Shown: positions 9,769 to 63,953 of the stretch, piece by piece
Layout: each line of letters opens with the position of its first letter
Numbering within the stretch: the first letter of the stretch is position 1
Virus record (IMG/VR): IMGVR_UViG_3300011202_000008
Origin: an uncultured virus (IMG/VR IMGVR_UViG_3300011202_000008)
Taxonomy: Duplodnaviria; Heunggongvirae; Uroviricota; Caudoviricetes
Reading direction: 5' to 3' (one strand)
Length of the DNA stretch: 64,000 nucleotides
Program-made: the position numbers and the translations under genes
Notes under the pieces: generated by a model
Database searches by the model: none
What the model was told of the DNA's origin: nothing
What the model saw: only the letters and a program-made list of their open reading frames with translations

Positions 9769-9918
9769 ATAAATTCTTATTCCAATAGTTAAAATGACAT
9801 TGTTATAAATAATAATATATTAGATGCTCAATATCAAAAATAAGTTAGATTAAAATTTTTCTTGTGATTAACCTAACTTATTGTTAAAATATAGTCATTA
9901 TTGAATATTGAGGTTATT

Positions 9919-10611
9919 ATGGAAATCAAAAAGAAGTACCCAAGAACATATCATTTAAGTTTCTCGGAAGCATTGCAATCTGATGACAAACTTATTGAAT
10001 CCCTTGAGGGTTTTATGGGTAAAGAAGTTTCTGTTTCTTTGAAAATGGATGGCGAAAACACAACACTATACCCTGATGAGCAAATGCATGCACGTAGTCT
10101 TGATAGCGCCCATAACTGGACGAGAGACGTTGCTAAACGTATTCACTCTGTTATCCGTCATGATATTCCCGAAGGCCATAGGCTTTGTTGTGAGAACGTT
10201 TATGCTAAACACTCAATCTACTATCCTGACGGATATTTAGAAGGTTATCTATATCTTCTTTCAGTTTGGAATGGTGATACTTGTTTATCTGTCGATGATA
10301 CGAACTTTTATGCTGAAGCATTAGATCTTCCAAGACCTAAAGAGTTATATCGTGGTGAGTTTGATATTGAAGTTCTTAAAAAACTATCTAAGTCACTAGA
10401 CAAGAGTATTGAGGAAGGTTTTGTTGTCCGTGTTACTGATGCTTTTGAATATAAAGATTTTAGTAAGTTTGTTACTAAGTTTGTTCGTGCTGGACATGTT
10501 CAACCTGAAAGTAAACATTGGCTTCAAACAGCAACGCCTAATGGCGAACCTATGCAGCCATGCAAACCTGCTTTTATGGCCTCTAATCCAAGACGTAAAG
10601 TAAAACCTTAA
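9919..10611 (+). CDS. RNA ligase (Rnl2-like nucleotidyltransferase domain)
   Basis: KYPRTYHL, motif I KMDGEN, EGFVVR, KFVR; GAGG RBS before ATG 9919. Confidence 0.85.
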   Translation: MEIKKKYPRTYHLSFSEALQSDDKLIESLEGFMGKEVSVSLKMDGENTTLYPDEQMHARSLDSAHNWTRDVAKRIHSVIRHDIPEGHRLCCENVYAKHSIYYPDGYLEGYLYLLSVWNGDTCLSVDDTNFYAEALDLPRPKELYRGEFDIEVLKKLSKSLDKSIEEGFVVRVTDAFEYKDFSKFVTKFVRAGHVQPESKHWLQTATPNGEPMQPCKPAFMASNPRRKVKP

Positions 10612-11311: not shown

Positions 11312-12304
11312 TTAATAACCTAACCTTCTTTTTCTTGTATCTTCAAATTTTAACATCATTTCAGCATCAACAAAGAATCTAGTAGTAAAATCAGCGTCAA
11401 GCTCTTTTCCTTTTTCAGGGTTTTCTTTATAAGCTTTTAATATATTTGTGAAGCTTTCTTTTATTTCTTCGTTACTCATATCATTGAAACGAGATGAGTT
11501 TTGTTTTTCGTCAAAAACATTGCCACCTAAAAGGATAACTAAATCAGATGGAATAGCTTCTTTTACATAGGTGTCAAGATTTTTTGCTTTTACTATAGCT
11601 TCATCGACATAACCATCAGACAACAGATCAGACACATGCTTTAAATGCTTATAATCTTCTTTATCAGACTCTAATAAATGTAGCTTATCTTCATGCATCG
11701 CTGTTTTTTGAAAATCAAGAATATGTTCATTCATAGAATTCAAAACTTTTTTTAACTTACCTAATGTGTCTGCCACATGATATTTTGGAAGATCTTCTGT
11801 TCCATCATAAGCAGATATATCAGATTGATATTGGAAAATTTCAACGTCTTCATCAGGAACAACTTTATAACTTGGATTGTTGACTCTTATTGCCCCTTCA
11901 AACTGTTCAAACTGATTCTTTTTTTCAATAACAACGTGTTCTGGAACAGAGTGAACATTTTCGAAGTTTAACTCCATTTCAATCACTCTTACGGGTATTC
12001 CTTTTTCTTTAGCATAACTAATAAAAGGCTCCATTTCTGAAAGCTTAGTAAACGTATTGCTTACAACGACATTAAAACCTTTATCTAAGGCTTTTTTAGC
12101 TTTTTGTAGACATACATCTTTGGCTTTTTGATGATTAGCGAAATCAAATTTATAGATACCATTACTATCGGTAAAGAAAGCATCATTTTCAAATGATTGA
12201 TATCCGTTTAATTCATATTCATTAGACATTTTTGATTTTCCACTGCCGGGATGTCCCCTAACGATTAGTAATTCTTGTTCTGTTTTGAATCCTAAGTATT
12301 TCAT
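11312..12304 (-). CDS. P-loop kinase (AAA_33/polynucleotide kinase-like) fused to an unknown C-terminal domain
   Basis: VRGHPGSGKS, VVVSNTFT, NVHSVP; likely start MKYLG at 12304 (GAGG RBS). Confidence 0.75.
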   Translation of the reverse strand: MKYLGFKTEQELLIVRGHPGSGKSKMSNEYELNGYQSFENDAFFTDSNGIYKFDFANHQKAKDVCLQKAKKALDKGFNVVVSNTFTKLSEMEPFISYAKEKGIPVRVIEMELNFENVHSVPEHVVIEKKNQFEQFEGAIRVNNPSYKVVPDEDVEIFQYQSDISAYDGTEDLPKYHVADTLGKLKKVLNSMNEHILDFQKTAMHEDKLHLLESDKEDYKHLKHVSDLLSDGYVDEAIVKAKNLDTYVKEAIPSDLVILLGGNVFDEKQNSSRFNDMSNEEIKESFTNILKAYKENPEKGKELDADFTTRFFVDAEMMLKFEDTRKRRLGY

Positions 12305-12387
12305 GTTAAACCCTCTTTTACATTTAATACTCTTATTATAACAATATAGGATTATTATGTATAGAAAATTTATTATTTTATTTATGC

Positions 12388-12515
12388 AAAAATTAAGCCT
12401 CCCGAAGGAGGCTATAAACTTACACAAAAACTAAAATAACTAATAACTATAACAACTACTAAACAGGAGTCTATATCGTATTACTATGCTATTACGGAGA
12501 TTAGCAAGTTATACT
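12388..12515 (-). ncRNA. Putative small RNA
   Basis: TTGACT-17-TAATAT promoter (12550-12522), no ORF, and a cUUCGg terminator hairpin at 12396-12413 with the T tract on the minus strand. Confidence 0.5.
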
Positions 12516-14759: not shown

Positions 14760-15590
14760 ATGACATGCAATATTAGGGTTTATTCAGATATACATCAAGA
14801 GTATCAAACAAAAAATAAAGAACTTCCAAAGTTTTTTAAAGATCCTTTTGATATTGCCGTTTATAAAGATGAAAAGCAGCAAACTCTCGTTATTGCTGGA
14901 GATTTGATTTATCTAAAAGATCTCAAAGATATTCGTTATATTCAATATCTTGAAGAATTGGCTAACCGTTTTAAACATGTTATTTATGTTTTTGGAAATC
15001 ATGAATTTTACATGTATAAATTGGGTAAAAACTACATTATCAAGGTTGCTGAAATGTTGTCTCATATTAAAAATCTTCATATCCTTTCAAGGTATACACC
15101 ATCTGTTGTAATAGATGGTGTTAAATTTGTTGGTGCAACATTGTGGACTGATTTTAATCATGAGCCTAAACTTTATCATTTTTATGAAGATACTACAGGT
15201 GATTTTAAATATATAAAATATAATGATGGTCCTTATTTTACTAAATTTAGATCTAATCATTGGGTAAAAGAACACGTTGAAGATTTTACTTGGATAAAAA
15301 ATGAAGTTCAACACTCTACAGAACCTGTTGTTGTTGTATCACACCATGCTCCAACTAGTGTTACTACAGATCCTGTTGATGATCCTAAATCAGAGTATAC
15401 GCAATTTTATACGTCTAATCTGGATGATTTCATAATCCAAAATCCTAATATATTGATGTGGATTCATGGTCATGTTCATTATCCTTTTGATTATAAAATG
15501 GGAACAACTAGAATTTTCTCTAATCCTAAAGATTATCATATTTCTATTGATGACAATCCTGAAAGAAGTTTCATTGAAATAAATCCTTAA
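14760..15590 (+). CDS. Calcineurin-like metallophosphoesterase
   Basis: SDIH, AGD, GNHE, HHAP and HGHVH motifs. Confidence 0.88.
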   Translation: MTCNIRVYSDIHQEYQTKNKELPKFFKDPFDIAVYKDEKQQTLVIAGDLIYLKDLKDIRYIQYLEELANRFKHVIYVFGNHEFYMYKLGKNYIIKVAEMLSHIKNLHILSRYTPSVVIDGVKFVGATLWTDFNHEPKLYHFYEDTTGDFKYIKYNDGPYFTKFRSNHWVKEHVEDFTWIKNEVQHSTEPVVVVSHHAPTSVTTDPVDDPKSEYTQFYTSNLDDFIIQNPNILMWIHGHVHYPFDYKMGTTRIFSNPKDYHISIDDNPERSFIEINP

Positions 15591-18903: not shown

Positions 18904-19746
18904 ATGACTTTAGTTAACCTCTTTGCTGCTATTTATAAAAATGATATCGAGCAAATTAAAAACATCTTAACCAATGAGCCTTCGTTGGTGGAAACCGTTT
19001 TTAAAAACCCTGAAAAAGAGCCTCATGCTTTTACTACTAAACTCTATCATCTTTGTAATGATGATCGTCAGATTGATGACCCCAATTATAAAGCAGAAAC
19101 AGCCCTTCTTTTTGCCGCTCGTTTAGGACGTAAAGAAGTTTGCGAACTACTTGTTAATGATTTTAAAGCGGATGTTAATGCTACAAACACTTATGGTCAT
19201 AATGCTTTCATGTCAGCTATTGATAGAAAAACTGATGCGAACTTTGATACAGCGCTTATGATTTTAAATAATCCTACCCTTAATCTTCATCATACTACCT
19301 ATGGTTTACATGATGCTTTAGGTCAATTGTTAAGACATCTTCAGCATTTTGACCCAAGAGGAGAATTGTCAGCAGTTCATGCACAAGCTGTTATTGATGC
19401 GTTGCTGGATAAAGGTTTTGACTTGAATAAACCTCAAGGAAAATCAGGTGAAACAGCATTTCTTTTAGCTTGCCATGCCCACAGTTGGATTGTCGTTGTT
19501 TATCTCATTGCTAGAGGTGCTGATTATTCTGTTAAAAATAATTATCTTCATTATGAGCGCGATATGTATTCAGCTCTTACTACCAATCAATATCTTCCTC
19601 CAGCAGCAAAAGAAGAGGTGCTTAATCTTTTGAAAAATGTTATTATGGGTGTTGAAAACCGTTTTGGTGAGTATAAACGTCCTGATCATCTTTATATTGA
19701 TTTTGATGGTGAACCTATGGAGTTTGATGCTAAACGTTTTGGTTAA
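18904..19746 (+). CDS. Ankyrin-repeat protein
   Basis: ETALLFAARLG, ADVNATNTYGHNAF and GETAFLLAC...RGADYS repeats. Confidence 0.8.
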   Translation: MTLVNLFAAIYKNDIEQIKNILTNEPSLVETVFKNPEKEPHAFTTKLYHLCNDDRQIDDPNYKAETALLFAARLGRKEVCELLVNDFKADVNATNTYGHNAFMSAIDRKTDANFDTALMILNNPTLNLHHTTYGLHDALGQLLRHLQHFDPRGELSAVHAQAVIDALLDKGFDLNKPQGKSGETAFLLACHAHSWIVVVYLIARGADYSVKNNYLHYERDMYSALTTNQYLPPAAKEEVLNLLKNVIMGVENRFGEYKRPDHLYIDFDGEPMEFDAKRFG

Positions 19747-20632: not shown

Positions 20633-22159
20633 TTAATTGCATGTATATAATCTTCTATCTGGTTCTCGACAATTACTTCCACCATTATTACATTCATTTC
20701 CTCGATATCTTGATACTTCTATTTGTTTTAAGCGATTAGGATCATTTGGGCAAGAACAACCTCCTGTATCTTTATTTGGAACATAGCATTTTCCTTCAAC
20801 AACAATAAACATTCTATTTATACTTCCTCCCCCTTCTTTCCAAACTCCATTAGAGCAAGATAATATAGAACCATCTGCTGTTCGTCCTTGCAAACCATTA
20901 GGAGAACATCCATTACCTGCATAGGCTACGCCATTGAGTTGAAGAAATTCCCCAACGGTTGTTCTACCACCAGATACAACACCTCCTGCCCCGTAAACCT
21001 GACCAGCAGCATCAATATTCCCGTTGGAATGAACATAGTTAGAGTTAAGGTTTCCTGATGCCCAAACATATGTTGCATTAACCGTTCCATTAGCATCTAT
21101 GTTTCCTGTTGATTTAACGTATCCACCATAGAATCCTGAAGTTGTTTGAACATTTTTACCCGCATAAGCGGTTATGGTGTTAGCATCGGTCATATTCCAG
21201 CCACCACCATACTTCTGGAAGTATATACCACCATCACCTAATGTTCTGAACCAGTTTTGAGTATAAGTTTCACCACGAGAAGTTACAGTTGTCCCTGAAA
21301 CAGTATTATTAGAATTAATGTTTCCATTAACCTGACTATTTCCTGCGACATTTAAATCAGACCCCATTGTAGCCACACCTCCTACATTTAGTGTAGAACC
21401 TACTGTAGTTGCGCCAGTAGAACTCAATGTTCCAGAAGTTGTATTCCCTACTGCTGTTATATCCTGAGCATTATAAATACTCTGACCACCCATATTAAGG
21501 TTTCCGGTCATAGGAAGTGTCCCATCACGACGAAGATAAACAGAATACATGGCTGAATTGTATCCCACTCTATATCCTAACATTCCAGCTTTTGCTATAG
21601 CAGGATATCCAGAAGAAGGATAATTCCAGTTATTACCATAACCATCAAGTTGAGTAGGAGATTTACTCATACCACTATCAATACCTGCTTCTTGCATAGC
21701 TTTACCAAGTAAATCATAACGGATACTCCCTCCTTCAACCCAAGAAGCATTAGTTATTATTAAACCATCAATAATATAGTGAGGACCTGTCCCTGAACGT
21801 TTTAGCTGTATAGAATAATCGGAACCAAAACTATTTCTGGCAACATAGGTTGATGGTAACAACCCTTCATTGATTAATGTTTGATAAGTAATGGAGCATA
21901 GATTTCCAGAACATGTTCTTGGTCCCGGATCGGTACCATTTTCAGCAGCAGCAGATAAACTGGCGAGTTTATCATATCTTATATTGATATATCCATTAAC
22001 CGCTTCTCCCAACTGCTTAATTTGCTGACCTGTAGCTGTTGCTTTTATATCTTCCTGATCTTTTACCATATCTTGAAATTTTATAAATGCTAATGATGTC
22101 CCTATACCAAGCACTAAAATAATTTCAAGTAATGAAAATCCTTTTTTATATTTCATCAT
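20633..22159 (-). CDS. pilV: PilV-like type IVb pilus tip adhesin
   Basis: Class III signal KKGFSLLE, shufflon-PilV-like N-domain, YLRRDGTLPMTGNL, WFRT...YGGGW.M.D and CS.G.W before the variable tip. Confidence 0.8.
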   Translation of the reverse strand: MMKYKKGFSLLEIILVLGIGTSLAFIKFQDMVKDQEDIKATATGQQIKQLGEAVNGYINIRYDKLASLSAAAENGTDPGPRTCSGNLCSITYQTLINEGLLPSTYVARNSFGSDYSIQLKRSGTGPHYIIDGLIITNASWVEGGSIRYDLLGKAMQEAGIDSGMSKSPTQLDGYGNNWNYPSSGYPAIAKAGMLGYRVGYNSAMYSVYLRRDGTLPMTGNLNMGGQSIYNAQDITAVGNTTSGTLSSTGATTVGSTLNVGGVATMGSDLNVAGNSQVNGNINSNNTVSGTTVTSRGETYTQNWFRTLGDGGIYFQKYGGGWNMTDANTITAYAGKNVQTTSGFYGGYVKSTGNIDANGTVNATYVWASGNLNSNYVHSNGNIDAAGQVYGAGGVVSGGRTTVGEFLQLNGVAYAGNGCSPNGLQGRTADGSILSCSNGVWKEGGGSINRMFIVVEGKCYVPNKDTGGCSCPNDPNRLKQIEVSRYRGNECNNGGSNCREPDRRLYTCN

Positions 22160-36683: not shown

Positions 36684-37469
36684 ATGACTCTTACAAAAAA
36701 TACCGTATATAGCCTCGATCAACAAATTAATATTCATAATAGTAAAAACACATATTCTCAAAGCGATTTCGCTTATGTTGTTAAGGTAGGTAAGAAAAAT
36801 GATGTTCTTCTTATTAGCTCTAAAAACCCAAAACAAGTTAGCATTATTTCTACTCCAAAACTTAAAGTTATACCTTTAACAAAAGAAAAAGAAGCTATTT
36901 TCAATAGCCTTCCTATTGTTTCCTATTTTGATTATAAAAAAGGTGATGCTGTAGTTCTGAAACAACCTTTTGATATTGGTGGAACTGAACTTCCTGTTGG
37001 GACTCGACTTACTATTAAAAGCCCTAAGATTCCATTCGTATTTGAATTTATTAATCCAGATAATAAAGAACAAACTATGTCTCTGTCTTTATTTTCTCCA
37101 TGTGAACTGGATATTGAAAAAGCAGAATCTTTAATTGAAGATGAAATTAAAGACTATAATCTTTCAGGTTTTAAAAGCTTGGGTTATGGTCATGATTCAG
37201 AAGTCTATAAGGGCAATATTAAAAAAGGTAAAAAAAAGGTATTTTCATTTAGTGATGATGGATGGGGTGGTGAACTACAGATAGATATCGTTGATAAAGA
37301 AGAGTTCGAGCTTCTTAAAGATAAAATGACATCTATTATCTTATCTTCTTTGTATTGCCAAAAAATGAACGTTAATGCGATTGGTTCTTATGATTTTTTC
37401 GTAGCATACTTACGACATCAATCTTATAACTATCACTCTTTTAAAGATTATCTTGATAGTTTCCTATAA
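36684..37469 (+). CDS. Hypothetical protein
   Basis: 261 aa ORF; DDGWGG motif. Confidence 0.65.
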   Translation: MTLTKNTVYSLDQQINIHNSKNTYSQSDFAYVVKVGKKNDVLLISSKNPKQVSIISTPKLKVIPLTKEKEAIFNSLPIVSYFDYKKGDAVVLKQPFDIGGTELPVGTRLTIKSPKIPFVFEFINPDNKEQTMSLSLFSPCELDIEKAESLIEDEIKDYNLSGFKSLGYGHDSEVYKGNIKKGKKKVFSFSDDGWGGELQIDIVDKEEFELLKDKMTSIILSSLYCQKMNVNAIGSYDFFVAYLRHQSYNYHSFKDYLDSFL

Positions 37470-37537
37470 CCTGTTAAATGCTCCTATAAGTCTATAGGAG
37501 CATCTTTTTTTAAACAGTAAAAAGATTATTCACCTAT

Positions 37538-37915
37538 TTAAAAAACCTCACATAAACCCGCACATCCACCATTATGATAATAAATAATCTTTATACTGAC
37601 ATTACTAACATCGAAACCTGATTTTTTTAACCAGTTTTTTATTTTATTAACTTTTTTCAAATCTATTGATTCATTGATATAATCTACATCAACGTTATCA
37701 TTGAGGATATAATCTAAACATATCTTTCCTTTTATCTCATATACTGCTATTGGATGTTTACCTTCATATTTAAAATAAGATATATCTTCACTCTTATATT
37801 TCTTTGACACATCATTAGCTTCTTCATTAAAAACATTTTTAGCTATTTCGTATAGCTCTGATATACTTTTTTCTTGTATAGCTCTTATTGCTATAGATGA
37901 ACACATGTAAGACAT
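37538..37915 (-). CDS. Hypothetical protein
   Basis: 125 aa ORF, GAGG RBS. Confidence 0.6.
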   Translation of the reverse strand: MSYMCSSIAIRAIQEKSISELYEIAKNVFNEEANDVSKKYKSEDISYFKYEGKHPIAVYEIKGKICLDYILNDNVDVDYINESIDLKKVNKIKNWLKKSGFDVSNVSIKIIYYHNGGCAGLCEVF

Positions 37916-38040
37916 TATTTTATCCTCATTTAATATTTTATCAATTAAACCATATTTTTATTTTTTAATCAAAAGTAAAACAACTTGATTTTAACTAATA
38001 AAATAGATATTATAGTTATTCTAAACAAAAAGGATATATC

Positions 38041-38115
38041 ATGGATTATTTAGCAAAAAATATAAATGTGTCGTTAACGAGCTTTCGTTGGCGTTGGCAA
38101 ACTTATATCTGCTAG
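38041..38115 (+). CDS. trpS leader peptide (24 aa, two Trp codons)
   Basis: AAGGA RBS; MDYLAKNINVSLTSFRWRWQTYIC; promoter TTGATT-17-TATTAT at 37985-38013. Confidence 0.8.
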   Translation: MDYLAKNINVSLTSFRWRWQTYIC

Positions 38116-38116
38116 A

Positions 38117-38184
38117 TAACCAAAGTCTATTGCTCATGCATCCTTTGGTTAAAATTAATGTCAAAATTTAAAAACCAAAAGGAT
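38117..38184 (+). promoter_or_regulatory. Translational attenuator (anti-SD / anti-anti-SD) of trpS
   Basis: Segment B (atcctttggtta, 38140-51) can pair with either A (taaccaaag, 38117-25) or C (aaccaaaaggat, 38173-84), which contains the trpS SD. Confidence 0.7.
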
Positions 38185-38191
38185 AAAAAAA

Positions 38192-39223
38192 ATGAATAAA
38201 CACCTCCCTATCAGTCTAACTGGTGATCGCCCTACTGGTCCTTTACATATTGGACACCTCGTAGGAAGTCTTTTAAACAGAGTTGCTATACAAGATACTC
38301 ATCAATCTTTTATCATGATTGCTGATGCTCAAGCATATACTGATAACATTGATAATAAAGAAAAGGTTCAAAAAGCTATTTTCCAAGTCGTTGAAGACTA
38401 TCTTTCTGTTGGTATCGATCCAAGTAAAACAACGATTTTTCTTCAATCAGCTATTCCAGAGTTATTTGAACTAACCTTCTATTTTACAAACTTTGTTACT
38501 GTCTCTCGTTTAGAACGAAACCCTACTATTAGACATGAAATATTCCAACGATTTACCTCTGAAAAAACAGAAATGGAATATATCCCTAGAAATATACCCA
38601 CTGGATTTTTAATTTATCCTATTAGTCAGGCCGCAGATATTTTAGCATTTAATGCCGATATAGTTCCAGTGGGTGAAGACCAACTCCCCATGATTGAACA
38701 GGCTAATGAAATAGCTCTTTCTCTTAATAGAAATGTAGGAGAAAATATTCTTAAAACTTGTTCTCCTATGCTTAGTTCATCAGCTAGACTTCCCGGCATA
38801 GATGGCAACAGCAAAATGGGTAAAAGCTTAGGAAATACGTTGAATCTCAATTCTACTAATGATGAGATAATTAAGATAGTTAAAAAAATGTATACTGATC
38901 CTAATCATCTTCGTATATCAGATCCCGGCAAAATAGAAGGAAATACAGTATTTTCATATTTAGATGCTTTTCATCATGATAAAAACTTAATTTCAGACCT
39001 AAAAGAACACTATCAACGAGGCGGTCTTGGAGATAGTTCGGTTAAAAAAATATTATCTGATACTCTTTTAGAATTCTTTGAACCTATACAAAAAAGACGT
39101 TCTTCTATCGAGGAAGAACAACTTAAACAAATCATAAAAGACGGAACTTTTTATGCTAGGAATATCGCATCTGATACCGTTAATAAAGTGAAAAAATCTT
39201 TAGGATTAGGAATTCAGTTTTAA
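38192..39223 (+). CDS. trpS: Tryptophanyl-tRNA synthetase (TrpRS II type)
   Basis: TGDRPTGPLHIGH, YPISQAADIL, VPVGEDQ, KMGKS. Confidence 0.95.
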   Translation: MNKHLPISLTGDRPTGPLHIGHLVGSLLNRVAIQDTHQSFIMIADAQAYTDNIDNKEKVQKAIFQVVEDYLSVGIDPSKTTIFLQSAIPELFELTFYFTNFVTVSRLERNPTIRHEIFQRFTSEKTEMEYIPRNIPTGFLIYPISQAADILAFNADIVPVGEDQLPMIEQANEIALSLNRNVGENILKTCSPMLSSSARLPGIDGNSKMGKSLGNTLNLNSTNDEIIKIVKKMYTDPNHLRISDPGKIEGNTVFSYLDAFHHDKNLISDLKEHYQRGGLGDSSVKKILSDTLLEFFEPIQKRRSSIEEEQLKQIIKDGTFYARNIASDTVNKVKKSLGLGIQF

Positions 39224-39240: not shown

Positions 39241-39269
39241 TTGACATAATAAAAACAATATTTTATACT
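39241..39269 (+). promoter_or_regulatory. Near-consensus sigma70 promoter
   Basis: TTGACA-17 bp-TATACT. Confidence 0.8.
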
Positions 39270-39275
39270 TTCCTA

Positions 39276-39460
39276 TAGTGGCAAGAGCTTGGTCTTTATG
39301 TTATCCGATTATTGCTAAAAGATTCTTGGGCCACCAGACTATCGGAAGTCTGAATAAATGATTGTTATATTGGGAACGATATATGTCTTGGAACCTTAAT
39401 GCTAACAAGAAGCTGCGATCATAATGTGAAAAAAAGGCTGGTTAATCCAGCCCTTTTTTT
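39276..39460 (+). ncRNA. Putative structured ncRNA (~185 nt)
   Basis: Lies between a consensus promoter and the terminator ggctgg-ttaat-ccagcc+T run; several stems; no credible ORF. Confidence 0.65.
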
Positions 39461-39723
39461 ATGCATTTTAAATCTACCATACTAATATACAAAAATAAAT
39501 CTCCTTATTTTGTTATTCTTAAATAGAATATATAATGCTATTTGTTATAATAAAATATCATAAATCGTAACCTTATGATCCTTAAAAATAAAAGAAAATA
39601 TGTATATAAATCATTGTATTTTAAAGAAATATATACCAAATTAAACTTTGATCCTCAACTGAAAATCTGCTATTATTTATTAGTCAAAACCCGATAAAAT
39701 AAATAAGATAAGAGGATAATAAA

Positions 39724-46390: not shown

Positions 46391-46876
46391 TTATTGATAT
46401 TCTATTTTTAATAAACTATCTTTCTCAATAATACTTTCATGTAATTTTTTTGAAAATGTATGAGCAAAATCATGAAGAGTCATAAATATCAGATCATCAC
46501 CATCTTTCTTTATAACCCTTTTATCTTTTAAATGATATTCTTTTTGTTCTTCGTCTAGAAAACTATCTAAATATTCTTCACCTTTTTCGTTTAATTTGAA
46601 CGTGATCTTATCATTTAAATTAAACGTCATATTATCAAATATAACAGCATTAGATTCGATAACCGTAAATGCACCAACAAACAATGTTGGACCAAATACA
46701 GCCAATAAATCAGAGAAAGACGATTTATAGGTTTTACCATCATATAAAAAATTATTAAATGATAGTCTTTTTTTATTGCTATCTTGCCAATTTCTTAAAT
46801 GCTGTAAGCCTCTATCCGTTAATTTAAACTCAACGACTCCATTTATAGGTAATGTCAAAGCATATTTTTTATTCAT
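46391..46876 (-). CDS. Hypothetical protein with two internal repeats
   Basis: V/ITFKL..(R/K)G..(H/Y)L...L.DL/F..F occurs twice; coupled to the tilS stop. Confidence 0.65.
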   Translation of the reverse strand: MNKKYALTLPINGVVEFKLTDRGLQHLRNWQDSNKKRLSFNNFLYDGKTYKSSFSDLLAVFGPTLFVGAFTVIESNAVIFDNMTFNLNDKITFKLNEKGEEYLDSFLDEEQKEYHLKDKRVIKKDGDDLIFMTLHDFAHTFSKKLHESIIEKDSLLKIEYQ

Positions 46877-47847
46877 TTTTCAATCCAAATTTTTCTACCA
46901 TTTGTCAGTAGTTGACCATTTTTAAATTGAACTTTTCTTAATTTTGAACAATTTTTATTTTCACTCAGTACGACATTCAGTAGATTATTAAAGTTTTTAG
47001 TTCCCTTGTTTTCTTCATCAATACTCTCAACATAACGATGTAAAACATTTTTCATACGAGATGTTGAAAGAGATTTAAGTTTGTCCATATCAAGAATATC
47101 ATTATGACTTACTCCAGCTTTATCTACAAATTTAATTGCTTCCAGATCTTCTTTAGCAATTTCATTAAGCAGTGATTCAGCTTCTTGTGCTTTTTCTGTT
47201 AAAGCAGTAATGTTAGAAATAACAGCTTTCCAACGACTACCTACTAACGGAAGGACTTCATTACGAATAAAGTTACGGCTGTATTTTGAATCACTATTGG
47301 AATCATCCTCTACCCACTGTAAGCCTTTTTCTACAGCATATGATTTAATATCTTGACGAAGAACATTTAACATAGGACGAACTAATAAAGCATTTCCCAT
47401 CATACGAGATTCTGGAATACCCATTAAGCCTTTAATACCAGTTCCACGGAAAAGACGGAATAAAATAGTTTCAGCGTTATCATTTTTATGATGACCCATG
47501 AAAAGAATATCGCCTTTTTTTGTATTAGCATTGATAAATTCATAACGAAGCTCTCTGGCTTTTTCTTCAACACCAGAAGTATCTTTCATATTGAGATGCG
47601 CTACGTTAATTTCAGCATTATACATTTTAGCTGTTTCAATAGCTTGATTTTCCCAATCTTCTGCTAGAACATTAAGACCATGATTGACATGAAGAAGCTT
47701 GATCTTCTTCCCTTCTGGCTTAATAGAAGATAAAACATCTAGCATAACACGAGAATCTACACCACCAGAATAAGCGATTACCCAATCACCATTCATGTTA
47801 TGATCATATTTAGCTACGGATTGTTTCATCAGTTCTACAATTTTCAT
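46873..47847 (-). CDS. tilS: tRNA(Ile)-lysidine synthetase, short form lacking the distal C-terminal domain
   Basis: AYSGGVDS, HVNHG, ARELRY, HHKNDNAET, RPML, D.SN, RNFIR. Confidence 0.92.
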   Translation of the reverse strand: MKIVELMKQSVAKYDHNMNGDWVIAYSGGVDSRVMLDVLSSIKPEGKKIKLLHVNHGLNVLAEDWENQAIETAKMYNAEINVAHLNMKDTSGVEEKARELRYEFINANTKKGDILFMGHHKNDNAETILFRLFRGTGIKGLMGIPESRMMGNALLVRPMLNVLRQDIKSYAVEKGLQWVEDDSNSDSKYSRNFIRNEVLPLVGSRWKAVISNITALTEKAQEAESLLNEIAKEDLEAIKFVDKAGVSHNDILDMDKLKSLSTSRMKNVLHRYVESIDEENKGTKNFNNLLNVVLSENKNCSKLRKVQFKNGQLLTNGRKIWIEK

Positions 47848-48531: not shown

Positions 48532-49089
48532 TTATTTAGTATAGAAAGTAATATTGTTATACTTTTCAGAACAACCTTTAGCTACATTATCTATATTTAG
48601 TTCCATATTTTTATAAACGTTTTTTATAAATGATGTTTTTTGATTGTTATTTTGTAGGTAAGATACATCTGTTTTTATTGCTCCAAAACTTTTTTCTACG
48701 GAGCTTACAAATAATGCACATTGATCTTGAGGTATGTTTGTATATTTTATGCTAAGCATAGAATATTTATTTCCAGTTTTATAATCGGATATTATTACTT
48801 CGCCCTTCCATGAATTTGTTATTTTATACAGTGTATTTGAAACCATTGTATTTGGAACTATTTTTGCTTCTAAAAGAATTTTATTACTAAGACCATTATA
48901 GTTGTTCCCATTATATATACCATAAATACCACTCAATATAGTATTTAGATTTGATACTTCTATATTTACGGTATTTGAATTCTTTAATTTAGGATAAAAA
49001 TAAAATACAGAAACAATAATACTAGCAATAATTCCTATAACTATTAATACTTCTAATAGGGAATATCCTTTTCTATTGATTATTTTCAT
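48532..49089 (-). CDS. Type IV pilin, PilS-like
   Basis: Class III signal RKGYSLLE, hydrophobic helix, NSWKG, Y.NIP...C and a second C-terminal Cys. Confidence 0.75.
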   Translation of the reverse strand: MKIINRKGYSLLEVLIVIGIIASIIVSVFYFYPKLKNSNTVNIEVSNLNTILSGIYGIYNGNNYNGLSNKILLEAKIVPNTMVSNTLYKITNSWKGEVIISDYKTGNKYSMLSIKYTNIPQDQCALFVSSVEKSFGAIKTDVSYLQNNNQKTSFIKNVYKNMELNIDNVAKGCSEKYNNITFYTK

Positions 49090-51229: not shown

Positions 51230-51787
51230 TTATAAAATATAAGTTAAATTGATTGAAACCAAATCATCCATGTAAGGTTTTGAACAATTTTCAGATATTT
51301 TAGCTACATCTATTTGATCTGATGGAGACGATTTTATCGATGCTCCAGAAACTTTTATAATTGCGGTCATTGGAAAAACAGCAGTAATGAATTTTGTACA
51401 GGCATTTTCTGACACCTCATAAATTAGTGTATACCCCGCACTGTAAGTATATCCAGATTCTGGCGTAGAATATAGACTATATCTTACATTTCTACCCCAA
51501 GCATTTCTGTATTCTGATGTGGATTCGGAAAATATCATGTTATCAGGTAAAGCCTTAGCTTTAACTAAAACATTTAAAGACCATTTTGAATAATCGGATG
51601 ATGAACTAAATAACTCTTTACTAGCAGCGTAGATAGCCGAAAGGTTCTTGGTTTCTTGGTTTACTTCATTTGATGCTTTAACTCCGGGATAAACTAAAAA
51701 CGCAGCAACAATAAATGCTGATATTATTGCTAGTGATAATAATAATTCAAGAAGAGAAAAGCCTTTTTTATTCCTTATTATTTTCAT
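51230..51787 (-). CDS. Type IV pilin, PilS-like
   Basis: KKGFSLLE signal, NAWG, two Cys. Confidence 0.75.
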   Translation of the reverse strand: MKIIRNKKGFSLLELLLSLAIISAFIVAAFLVYPGVKASNEVNQETKNLSAIYAASKELFSSSSDYSKWSLNVLVKAKALPDNMIFSESTSEYRNAWGRNVRYSLYSTPESGYTYSAGYTLIYEVSENACTKFITAVFPMTAIIKVSGASIKSSPSDQIDVAKISENCSKPYMDDLVSINLTYIL

Positions 51788-57834: not shown

Positions 57835-59043
57835 TTATTTCATCTTCCTACTTCTGATTATTGCAGGTTCTTTTTCGTTTTCCAATTTTGGTAGATCCAA
57901 ATAAGCCAAACTATAATCTTGAAGTTTATTTCTTTCAAAATAAGTTATTAAATCTGGTTCTTTTCCTCTTAATGAGATTAATACAAAACCTTTTAATGGA
58001 TTATCAGGCATTTCATTATTTATCTTCAAAGCAGCAGTCTTCATATCAAGACCTTTTAATAATTCAACGTTTTCTGCTATATATGTTTCCATTTTATTTA
58101 GTTCTGCTAATACATTACTTTCTATCGATTCAAGTTTAGTAATATCATAACCATCTGTTTTTAAAGCACCCTTTACATCATCAAGAGTGCCGTCTAAGAA
58201 CATTTTAGCAACATCTCTTTCTCTTAATCCAGCTTCTGCTCTATGTTGGGCATTATACCAGTCACTTTTTATTTTAATCATTCTTCCATCATTAAATTGC
58301 ATTACATATCCTTCAATGCCTTCAATAACTTTTAAATCTTCCAAAACAGAATCTATATCAAGTACACCTTTTTCTGTTTGCTTAAGATTTAATGGAGCTA
58401 ACCTTCTAACATTGTGTTTCTCAACTAATGCTGTTAAGTCAGGATCATTAAATGGAATATAACTACCTGTTTTTATATGTCTTACATGAAGTAAAACAAC
58501 ATCCATTTTTTTATGACTAATAACTATCGTATTTTCAGGATCTGTAAACTCAAATACTGGAGTAAACTCATCAACTAATTCATTACAGAATTTTAGAATA
58601 TTCTGATTTTCTGGTTTTGATAAAAATTGAGTTGCTCTTTTAGCTTCATTACTTAAAAAGCTTTTCTTTGTTTTTACAGCAAGATTACCATTAACCCTAT
58701 GTAGGGAAATCATTGTTCCATCTATTTTATCCCAAATAGAGAAAATATCTGAAAATTTTACATTACTCTTTAATGTATCTTCTCTTTCTCCAAGATTGAA
58801 AAACTTATGCAGTGGTCTACCAATAATATTGCCAGTCTCTTTATCAAATGTAATACCCCTTGCCTCACAAGCTAATGGATCTTTAAAAGTATTTCTGTCT
58901 GAAATATTGTAAGCTACAGATAATGTTCCAAGACCACTATCTATTAATCTTAATTCTGGTCTTGCTTCTAAAACAGGTTTCATTTGTGAAAGATTTTCAA
59001 TGTATGGAAAATCCGTTTCTGGCACTTTAATTTTTATAGTCAT
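57835..59043 (-). CDS. T4 Rnl1 (RnlA)-family RNA ligase
   Basis: EARGITFD, RPLHKFFNLGE, motif I KIDGT, FEF, EGYV, KIKSDWY. Confidence 0.88.
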   Translation of the reverse strand: MTIKIKVPETDFPYIENLSQMKPVLEARPELRLIDSGLGTLSVAYNISDRNTFKDPLACEARGITFDKETGNIIGRPLHKFFNLGEREDTLKSNVKFSDIFSIWDKIDGTMISLHRVNGNLAVKTKKSFLSNEAKRATQFLSKPENQNILKFCNELVDEFTPVFEFTDPENTIVISHKKMDVVLLHVRHIKTGSYIPFNDPDLTALVEKHNVRRLAPLNLKQTEKGVLDIDSVLEDLKVIEGIEGYVMQFNDGRMIKIKSDWYNAQHRAEAGLRERDVAKMFLDGTLDDVKGALKTDGYDITKLESIESNVLAELNKMETYIAENVELLKGLDMKTAALKINNEMPDNPLKGFVLISLRGKEPDLITYFERNKLQDYSLAYLDLPKLENEKEPAIIRSRKMK

Positions 59044-62426: not shown

Positions 62427-63953
62427 ATGTATTTAAATTATAAAAAAGGTTTTAGTCTATTAGAATTGATTTTAGTATTAGGTGTAGGGATCGCATTTGC
62501 TTTTATGAGATTTCAGGAAATGTTACAGCAACAAGACGAAATAAGAGCAAGCGTATCTGGAAAACAAATAAAACAAATAGGTGATGCTACAAATGGTTAT
62601 ATTTCTTTAAGATATGATAAAATTTCATCATTATCTAATGCAGCAGGAAACGGTACCGATCCGGGGCCAAGAAACTGTTCTGGAAATATCTGTACTATAA
62701 CATATCAAACTTTGGTTAATGAAGGTCTTCTTCCTTCAACATATGTTGCTAAGAATGGTTTTGGATCTGGATATAATATTCAAATTAGCCGTTCAGGTAT
62801 CAGTCCTAACTATATCATAGATGGTGTAGTATTAACCAATGCTGCTTGGGTTGAAGGCGGTAAAGTTCGGTATGATCTGTTGGGTAAAGCTATGCAGTCA
62901 GCAGGGATTGACAGTGGGGTAAGTAAAAATACAACCACTGTAAATGGGTATGGTGGTGGATGGAGTTCGTCTTCTTCGACCTATTCTTTAATAAATAAAA
63001 CTGGATTATTAGCTTATCGTACAGGATATAACTCTTTTGCTTATTCTGCTTATTTAAGACGTGATGGCACACTCCCTATGACCGGAAATCTTGATATGGG
63101 GGCCAATGATATCAATAATGCTAAAAATATTACAGCTTCTGGTAACGCATCCTTTGGGGGAACTGGAAACTTTATAGGAAATTTAATAACAATGGGGAGC
63201 GTTTTAGCAGCAAAAGAGCTAATAGCTCATAATGGTTATGGTGATGCTATTTATTTTGGTGGAGACACGGCAAACAATGATTATGAAATACGTTTAGGAG
63301 CACCTAAACAACTTACTATATATTCACCATCAGCAGGAAATTATACTACCGTATTACAAGTTAATAGAAACGTCAAAATAGATCAAAGACTTGGATTAAT
63401 GGGATACGATCCCAATGATATACCTATTGGATGGAATGGAGGCTTACGAACAGTTGATGTTTATGCTGAAGGAGCTATTGGAATAAAAAGAGCCAATGGT
63501 TCAGGAAATAGTGATTTAGCTTTTTCTGCTAACAATGATGGTAATGTTTTCTCATCTGGTAATATTACTACAAATCAAAGAGTTATAGCTAATGATATTC
63601 AAATTAAAAAAATATACTCTGTCGGCTCACCATGCACTCCAAATGGTCTTATTGGCATTAGTAGTGATGGTAACTCATTATCCTGTATTAACGGTTTATG
63701 GCAGAAAATATCTTTTAATTATTCTCAATATGAACTTACATACACTGCGCCTACAGAAGGAACTCAAGATATTATTCAAACTAAAGTTATGGGCAAACAT
63801 TTAGTTTGTTTTTTAACTGGAGATCAACATAATCCGGGGCTTCAAAAACACTCTTTAGTCTTTAGAAATGGCGATGAGTGGATTTTAGAACAGAGAATGA
63901 TAAAATGGCCTGCCCAAATCATAACATGGGCAAAAGCCACCTGCATTGACTAA
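62427..63953 (+). CDS. pilV: PilV-like type IVb pilus tip adhesin, second copy
   Basis: KKGFSLLE. The N-terminal ~240 aa closely match 20633-22159 (GTDPGPR.CSGN.C.ITYQTL.NEGLLPSTYVA); the distal part differs. Confidence 0.8.
   Translation: MYLNYKKGFSLLELILVLGVGIAFAFMRFQEMLQQQDEIRASVSGKQIKQIGDATNGYISLRYDKISSLSNAAGNGTDPGPRNCSGNICTITYQTLVNEGLLPSTYVAKNGFGSGYNIQISRSGISPNYIIDGVVLTNAAWVEGGKVRYDLLGKAMQSAGIDSGVSKNTTTVNGYGGGWSSSSSTYSLINKTGLLAYRTGYNSFAYSAYLRRDGTLPMTGNLDMGANDINNAKNITASGNASFGGTGNFIGNLITMGSVLAAKELIAHNGYGDAIYFGGDTANNDYEIRLGAPKQLTIYSPSAGNYTTVLQVNRNVKIDQRLGLMGYDPNDIPIGWNGGLRTVDVYAEGAIGIKRANGSGNSDLAFSANNDGNVFSSGNITTNQRVIANDIQIKKIYSVGSPCTPNGLIGISSDGNSLSCINGLWQKISFNYSQYELTYTAPTEGTQDIIQTKVMGKHLVCFLTGDQHNPGLQKHSLVFRNGDEWILEQRMIKWPAQIITWAKATCID

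Follow-up and report, generated by a model that had tools for sequence, protein, structure and literature searches.

A predicted leader with Trp codons that may control translation of a trpS gene on a phage-like element

Genes for tRNA synthetases are common on large phages and similar elements, and to our knowledge hardly anything is known about when they are expressed. The 64,000-nt stretch of DNA analysed here (that whole stretch is called the window below) comes from the IMG/VR record of an uncultured virus, IMGVR_UViG_3300011202_000008, and raises this question at one locus. It carries a trpS gene, encoding a tryptophan--tRNA ligase (TrpRS), and the intergenic region 5' of it (37916-38191, with a minus-strand gene at 37538-37915 on one side and trpS on the other) contains a short open reading frame (ORF) with two Trp codons near its 3' end. 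Is this region a device by which the element adjusts the production of TrpRS to the supply of charged tRNA-Trp? Our answer, held with fair confidence, is that a ribosome-mediated leader would sense Trp codons here and control translation initiation of the element-borne trpS; as judged from the sequence, the element probably makes TrpRS only when charged tRNA-Trp runs short. An earlier note on this DNA had described a promoter, a ribosome-binding site, a 24-codon ORF ending at 38115 and a TGG-CGT-TGG stretch at 38089-97, and each of them was found exactly where it had been placed. The features of the locus are as follows.

37985..38013, plus strand: sigma-70-like promoter, TTGATT-17-TATTAT (9 of 12 matches in the promoter scan)
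38030..38035, plus strand: Shine-Dalgarno sequence (SD) of the leader ORF, AAGGAT, 5 nt 5' of its ATG (from the sequence)
38041..38115, plus strand: leader ORF, ATG...TAG, 24 codons and stop, MDYLAKNINVSLTSFRWRWQTYIC (from the sequence and the ORF list)
38089..38097, plus strand: putative regulatory codons TGG-CGT-TGG (Trp17, Arg18, Trp19), with TGG at 38089 and 38095 (from the sequence)
38192..39223, plus strand: trpS, 343 amino acids, tryptophan--tRNA ligase of the TrpRS II (trpS2) clade (PF00579, 1.5e-51; TIGR00233, 238 bits against a cut-off of 176.75; tree)

The leader ORF has its own SD and its translation is predicted; the cognate codons, 17 and 19, lie near its 3' end in the order W-R-W, with 5 codons between the second Trp and the stop. 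Genetic code table 11 fits the window, in which 85 ORFs of at least 100 amino acids end with TAA (70), TGA (9) or TAG (6), and because table 11 fits and TAG ends 6 of these 85 long ORFs, TAG is a stop codon here. Read-through of the TAG, by which the leader frame would continue to a TAA overlapping the trpS start, was rejected in view of the dense table-11 ORFs and the same count; a tRNA gene search of the window found none, which also counts against it. As for the promoter, the scan found 9 promoter-like sites where 8.7 were expected from shuffles, and by itself it is no evidence for the one at 37985..38013.

The window is AT-rich (GC about 23-35%), and short ORFs are common in AT-rich DNA; the ORF might thus be a product of chance lying beside an ordinary stable 5' untranslated region. 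However, when the 250 nt 5' of trpS were shuffled 3000 times with their dinucleotides preserved, a short ATG ORF with W..W (two Trp within four residues) arose only 14 times, and ORFs of the same type occurred in 21 of the 2550 sliding 250-nt segments taken across the 64 kb. The ORF is also kept in L002, which is the sole close relative with DNA among the metagenome matches listed, and the comparison of elements of this type comprises these two members (n=2, the window and L002). Furthermore, when the 250 nt upstream of trpS at 80 distinct loci were scanned for an ATG ORF of 8-45 codons with W..W, 17 loci had one; the reverse complement, taken as a control, gave 2 of 80. We regard a chance ORF as extremely improbable, and the comparison already appears to bring this explanation close to refutation.

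Four segments, beginning within the leader ORF and ending just before trpS, can pair with one another in two ways.

38042..38055, plus strand: segment 1, the 5' end of the leader ORF, pairing with segment 2 (pair list of the minimum free energy (MFE) fold)
38110..38125, plus strand: segment 2, made up of the last codon, the stop codon and A (core AACCAAAG, 38118-25), pairing with segment 1 or with B (folds)
38140..38151, plus strand: segment 3, or B, the anti-SD strand ATCCTTTGGTTA, pairing with A or with C (folds)
38173..38184, plus strand: segment 4, or C, AACCAAAAGGAT, which holds the trpS SD AAGGA (sequence and fold)

Segments A (38117-25), B (38140-51) and C (38173-84, with the trpS SD) had been marked in the earlier note and were recovered unchanged; the SD within C lies 8 nt 5' of the trpS ATG. 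Folding of the RNA, which had been proposed there as a check, gave for 38030-38200 an MFE structure of -39.1 kcal/mol (z -4.36; 0 of 200 shuffles were as stable) in which B (38140-50) pairs with C (38173-84) and the trpS SD is buried. Once C is withheld, A (38116-25) and B form a hairpin of -12.0 kcal/mol. The two pairings are mutually exclusive, as had been claimed. In the window RNA 3' of a stalled ribosome, A:B amounts to -12.0 and B:C to -12.2 kcal/mol, with a barrier from A:B of about 10.6, and for L002 the two states come to -11.7 and -8.8 kcal/mol, the barrier being 7.1; by this modelling, the A:B and B:C states of the window are nearly isoenergetic, that is, a balanced switch. Segment 1 adds a further helix. 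Positions ATG+1 to +14 are paired, in the window as in L002, with the end of the leader ORF (its last codon or codons and the stop) and with the 5' half of A; beneath this helix 1:2, the region of the leader SD pairs with nucleotides immediately 3' of A, and the letters involved differ between the two. In the free RNA of the window, it is the 3' portion of the leader SD (38030..38035) that is paired, with 38128-31. The earlier note had included neither the pairing of segment 1 with the stop codon and A nor the kinship to the proteobacterial trpS2 leader described below. Taken as predicted structures, these pairings support a four-segment translational attenuator with 1:2 and 3:4 as the default and 2:3 (A:B) as the alternative.

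The nature of the output was considered from the 3' end of this structure. A terminator scan of 37985-38192 found no terminator-like site before trpS, and the B:C hairpin of the window and of L002 is AU-rich; behind it come an A run and the ATG. A terminator U tract is absent, as the earlier note had remarked for this DNA. Segments 3:4 therefore do not form an intrinsic terminator of the kind found in trpL-type transcription attenuators and, because there is neither a terminator-like site nor a U tract, the output is not intrinsic termination. The Rfam search (cmscan of 37400-38700, E <=10) returned only unrelated matches at chance level, the best with 21.2 bits against a gathering score of 90; the region thus falls neither into Trp_leader (RF00513) nor into any other Rfam family, T-box included. 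Trp might nevertheless be sensed with a transcriptional output, either by Rho polarity on the untranslated trpS RNA or by B:C acting as a weak terminator or pause site, in which case masking of the SD would be secondary. Rho polarity on untranslated RNA is established. In the cellular relatives of this leader the middle hairpin is GC-rich and is often followed by a U-rich tail, and the preprint cited below on the Salmonella leader speaks, in a passage on it, of an 'attenuation-controlled' trpS2, possibly in the transcriptional sense. Against this stands the stretch from the promoter to trpS as just described, in both elements, and we consider a mainly transcriptional output rather unlikely.

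Conservation upstream of homologous trpS genes, another check proposed earlier, turned out in favour of the leader. L002 is a 243-kb metagenome contig with 39% GC across the 7-kb locus; since its TrpRS is 74% identical to that of the window and the divergently transcribed upstream gene 48%, the locus is syntenic and well diverged. Both hexamers of its promoter (TTGCTT-17-TAACAT) lie at the position of those in the window, with the spacing kept, and its leader SD, GGAG, is at the same place and likewise paired. Its leader ORF has 26 codons, MRYLENIVVAYSTTSSRWRSYWRASK, with two TGG (2902 and 2914; ...RWRSYW...); the stop is at 2929 and A at 2930-37, so that the A core begins inside the stop codon, and the position of the stop relative to A differs by 4 nt from that in the window. 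The cores AACCAAAG (A), CTTTGGTT (B) and AACCAAAAGGA (C) are identical in the two elements, while the spacers between them have been rewritten. Helix 1:2 has 13 pairs, and the two elements share its register relative to both the ATG and A; between them none of the pairs is disrupted, two are altered on one side only and one has changed in a compensatory way (C:G to A:U). The L002 RNA folds into the same two-domain shape (-47.6 kcal/mol, z -4.54).

Beyond L002, the exact A..B..C pattern gave 0 matches in the collection viral_contigs and 4 in genome_contigs, none with trpS, and a looser pattern gave 44 viral loci, 0 of them with trpS. A protein search of viral_contigs yielded, apart from L097 (75% over 48 residues), only relatives with 45-54% identity. 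The closest TrpRS proteins (P0003-P0006, P0008) are 71-95% identical, and a further group (P0009-P0021) is 60-66% identical. In L097 (1900-2145), a GC-rich viral contig, the trpS, represented by 48 residues, lies directly 3' of a tRNA-Arg(CCT) gene and no leader ORF is present.

On the basis of these features, the following course of events is proposed. The promoter at 37985 would drive a transcript carrying the 24-codon leader ORF and the four pairing segments. In free RNA, or once a ribosome has translated the whole leader, segments 1:2 and 3:4 would pair and the trpS SD would be buried. When charged tRNA-Trp is scarce, a ribosome on the leader would halt at Trp17 or Trp19; the long leader hairpin could then not close around it and A would be left uncovered. 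A would pair with B as soon as B is transcribed, leaving C single-stranded, and a 30S subunit could load on trpS. If the stalled ribosome resumed and reached the stop codon, it would cover A and free B, and B:C would re-form. Such a switch would be kinetic and co-transcriptional, as A and B are made before C and A:B would form first if A is free.

The geometry of the ribosome agrees with this proposal. On the assumption that the footprint reaches from -12 to +15 nt relative to the first base of the P site, a ribosome whose A site holds the stop codon covers the RNA to 38125, the last base of A; when the A site holds the Trp19 codon, coverage ends at about 38107 and A is free. The same geometry holds in L002. 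This part of the switch model in the earlier note therefore stood, under the assumed footprint, but the opening of the SD was not reproduced by equilibrium folding, and this and several other results weigh against the proposed control. When the ribosome was represented by masks, the probability of the SD being unpaired in the window was 0.16 whether the RNA had no ribosome, one at the stop or one at the Trp codons, and a trailing ribosome made no difference; in L002 it increased from 0.29 to no more than 0.42-0.46. The best fold of the window RNA 3' of the stalled ribosome consists of B:C plus a small hairpin (-14.2 kcal/mol, against -12.0 for A:B). A ribosome at the Trp codons leaves segment 1 uncovered, and the nearest-neighbour model lets 1:2 close around it; we would discount this closure by a steric argument alone. 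The Trp codons of the leader are separated rather than tandem, and the tail behind them is longer than in the cellular leaders with WW. Finally, sampling is thin: n=2 and identical A, B and C cores leave no variation by which A:B or B:C could be judged for covariation. Because equilibrium folding with ribosome masks leaves the SD of the window closed, the switch would have to be kinetic.

The closed SD of the window is also what would be seen if trpS had been acquired together with a cellular leader whose ORF and hairpins no longer regulate, with B:C damping translation constitutively. The nesting of this TrpRS in a cellular leader-bearing clade (see below) is in line with such a vestige. What the two elements have retained is not: despite their strong divergence, both keep the open frame, the two TGG, helix 1:2 with its compensatory change and the exact A, B and C cores, and the cellular terminator has been swapped for an AT-rich design, which points to continued selection. 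We consider a vestigial leader improbable.

Autoregulation by tRNA mimicry, as in thrS of E. coli, was weighed as well; here TrpRS bound at a hairpin at 38113-38129 or at C would block the ribosome. This hairpin has a 7-nt loop, AACCAAA, with a central CCA, which is the Trp anticodon, and it is seen in the folds 3' of the stalled ribosome. However, the flanks of the motif in L002 cannot form the stem, and the L002 folds show A:B instead; the CCA is explained by its complementarity to GG in the anti-SD strand, and the conserved Trp codons would be left unexplained. The hairpin occurs in the window only and is therefore not the conserved anticodon-arm-like hairpin of a thrS-type operator. Regulation by mimicry appears very improbable, and an anticodon-mimic operator was rejected, the stem being impossible in L002 and the Trp codons unexplained. 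We thus return to the leader that senses Trp codons and consider where it came from.

The window protein is a tryptophan--tRNA ligase, with HIGH present and the second motif reading KMGKS, and its relatives showed that leaders of this kind accompany one branch of the enzyme. Besides the window and L002, 14 loci of the scan have an ORF with adjacent WW located 2-3 codons before the stop and ending 93-120 nt before trpS (for example, MNINHAVLTVNRWWLPS); one further W..W match, in L052, is chance-like. By exact look-up, the leader-bearing proteins come from Klebsiella, Enterobacter, Citrobacter, Pseudoalteromonas/Psychrosphaera, Vibrio brasiliensis, Herbaspirillum, Burkholderia stagnalis and a metagenome-assembled genome of Pseudolabrys. 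In a quick IQ-TREE tree of 87 TrpRS, all 16 of the 16 leader-bearing entries fall into one clade of 23 (SH-aLRT 99), which contains the window and L002 as a sister pair and also holds 4 leaderless entries and 3 with too little upstream DNA. The TrpRS of the window thus belongs to the leader-carrying clade. Salmonella has both enzymes: the housekeeping trpS (in dam-rpe-gph-trpS) is 29% identical to the window protein, and the second gene, noted as 'tryptophanyl-tRNA synthetase II' (STM4508), is 53.5% identical and is preceded by a leader that reads MNTKRSNATQRHLRWWLPS in the sequence. By contrast with these, the trpS of the Acinetobacter record L086 (55% identity) has no W-rich leader upstream.

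Several observations were made on these relatives. Cellular trpS2 leaders also end in a conserved SD-masking hairpin with compensatory changes, in two subgroups of 7 sequences (L013, L016, L025, L005, L023, L012, L017) and 5 sequences (L011, L015, L019, L043, L090). The family includes Enterobacter, Klebsiella, Citrobacter, Salmonella, Vibrio and Pseudoalteromonas types, the Salmonella-type leader locus being L098 2832-2994, and Rfam at gathering score gave 0 matches on nine related loci. As read from these hairpins, cellular trpS2 control may be translational as well as transcriptional. On the E. coli plasmid NZ_CP147089.1 (36411-36952, H25), a trpS2-type gene with its upstream region is 92% identical to the Enterobacter-type L013 and adjoins the fosfomycin resistance gene FosA8; since the H25 locus lies on a plasmid, the leader-trpS unit also travels on plasmids. 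Some records of the phage collection look like pieces of bacterial chromosome. These are L086 (CAKLQF020000003.1, 'Acinetobacter phage MD-2021a'), which has sucC and sucD beside trpS, and L098 and L099 (AFYI01000007.1 and AFYI01000003.1) from Salmonella Infantis, which carry dam-rpe-gph-trpS.

How does the leader of the window compare with systems already described? In the trpL leader of the trp operon of E. coli and Salmonella, 1:2 and 3:4 form by default, and 2:3 forms when the ribosome stalls at Trp codons. The window leader shares this logic, but its segments 3:4 are an SD-masking hairpin rather than a terminator, the stalled ribosome would not sit on segment 1, and the target is a synthetase rather than a biosynthetic operon. 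Resistance genes of the erm and cat type are controlled by translational attenuation, the stall being caused by a ribosome-bound drug and an arrest peptide. They resemble the window in having a leader ORF, on which a stalled ribosome re-pairs the mRNA and a masked SD is released, and they differ from it in the signal, which here would be how much charged tRNA-Trp is available for ordinary Trp codons.

Closest is the proteobacterial trpS2 leader (Salmonella STM4508 and others). Both belong to the same TrpRS clade and have a Trp-codon ORF about 70-120 nt before trpS; in both, the segment beside the stop codon takes part in alternative pairings and the SD is masked by the final hairpin (among the cellular leaders, in those of the Enterobacterales and of the Vibrio type). 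On the other hand, the cellular ORFs have 12-19 codons and adjacent WW with 2-3 codons after it, whereas the window has W-R-W followed by 5 codons; the cellular RNA is a six-segment, terminator-like relay with an extra GC-rich hairpin, whereas the window has four AT-rich segments and no terminator; and the copy in the window lies on a phage-like element and not on a chromosome. Judging from these features, the leader of the window is best described as derived from, or related to, the proteobacterial trpS2 leader, rebuilt in an AT-rich form without the terminator. Tandem TGG codons in the Salmonella trpS2 leader are mentioned in a passage of a preprint (bioRxiv 10.64898/2026.09.09.750475), which places trpS2 among attenuation-controlled genes and states that TrpS2 is up in a miaA mutant. 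The Salmonella leader is thus already noted in that 2026 preprint; the version on the element lacks the terminator and masks the SD.

Attenuation control of an auxiliary Streptomyces TrpRS, mentioned in the earlier note, was reportedly studied by experiment in S. coelicolor. A classical attenuator was predicted before trpS2 of S. avermitilis, according to a passage of Seliverstov et al. 2005 (PMC1262725), and the S. lividans re-annotation (PMC8079986) describes, in its part on this gene, a trpL2 before trpS with a single Trp and 'no uridine-enriched sequence'. By these descriptions, to which the comparison is confined, the Streptomyces attenuators are like the window leader in having a Trp-codon leader peptide 5' of a TrpRS gene, and unlike it in being GC-rich, actinobacterial and described as transcription attenuators. 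A putative leader coding sequence (CDS) on the trpS mRNA of Caulobacter crescentus is reported from ribosome profiling in a passage of Schrader et al. 2014 (PMC4117421); by that description only, it is likened to the window as a translated small CDS before a proteobacterial trpS. The titles and abstracts of open-access papers and preprints that were searched contained nothing on the regulation of phage-borne synthetases or on leader-peptide attenuators belonging to them.

The synthetase itself has a peculiarity. The class I KMSKS loop of the window TrpRS (residues 208-212) reads KMGKS; Gly in place of the first Ser was present in 7 of 7 proteins of its own group (the window protein and its 6 closest homologues, 71-95% identical) and in 12 of 121 in the whole search set. 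The toxin kinase HipT phosphorylates E. coli TrpS at S197 of KMS197KS, as described in part of PMC6581861, and the KMGKS loop of the window is without the serine corresponding to this target. On a bolder view, the leader and the TrpRS together would be a phage sensor and effector against shutdown of Trp-tRNA charging by the host. Stalling at the Trp codons would report that the host TrpRS is off, by a toxin kinase of the HipT/HipA2 type, by an inhibitor or by loss of tRNA-Trp, and the stall would unmask translation of a phage TrpRS with a KMGKS loop, whose insensitivity by virtue of the Gly is hypothetical. We regard this role as quite unlikely.

With regard to the element, the window encodes three DNA methyltransferases, an NAD kinase, MGMT, MazG and three NUDIX proteins, together with many ORFs that fall into no family; several ORFs match PHROG families strongly. 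Genes for capsid, portal and terminase were found nowhere within these 64 kb. A large phage is the likeliest reading of this gene content, a large plasmid-like element being the alternative. Further genes of the tRNA repair or modification type accompany trpS (57835-59043, minus strand; 9901-10611, plus; 11312-12427, minus; 14760-15590, plus; 46873-47847, minus); they encode a T4 Rnl1-type RNA ligase, a second RNA ligase (PF09414), a PNK-like ATPase, a metallophosphoesterase and a TilS N-domain protein (TIGR02432, 171 bits against 93.6). Two type IVb pilins of the PilS/bundlin type and two Shufflon_N (PilV-like) proteins are encoded at 48532-49089 (minus), 51230-51787 (minus), 20633-22159 (minus) and 62427-63953 (plus); PHROGs labels both Shufflon_N proteins 'tail collar fiber protein', and these pilin and Shufflon_N genes are an unusual cargo that blurs the choice between phage and plasmid. 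There is also an ankyrin-repeat protein (PF12796, 4.2e-12) at 18904-19746 (plus). Just 3' of trpS, 39241-39460 (plus) carries a strong promoter-like site, TTGACA-17-TATACT (11 of 12 matches), followed about 170 nt on by a GC hairpin and T run at 39436-39461. This stretch is a candidate small RNA, and its sole Rfam match was a weak one to PrrB/RsmZ (18.6 bits against a gathering score of 44, E 0.067).

If the proposed control is true, the element would read the host's charged tRNA-Trp by means of host ribosomes and make TrpRS on demand, and the locus would show, in compact form, a physiological sensor carried by a virus. It would also illustrate how an attenuator may be rebuilt, from the cellular six-segment version with a terminator to a four-segment, SD-masking version in AT-rich DNA. 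For the trpS2 leader family, which has no Rfam model, the conserved SD-masking hairpin suggests translational control, as against the transcriptional attenuation spoken of in the passages of the literature cited above.

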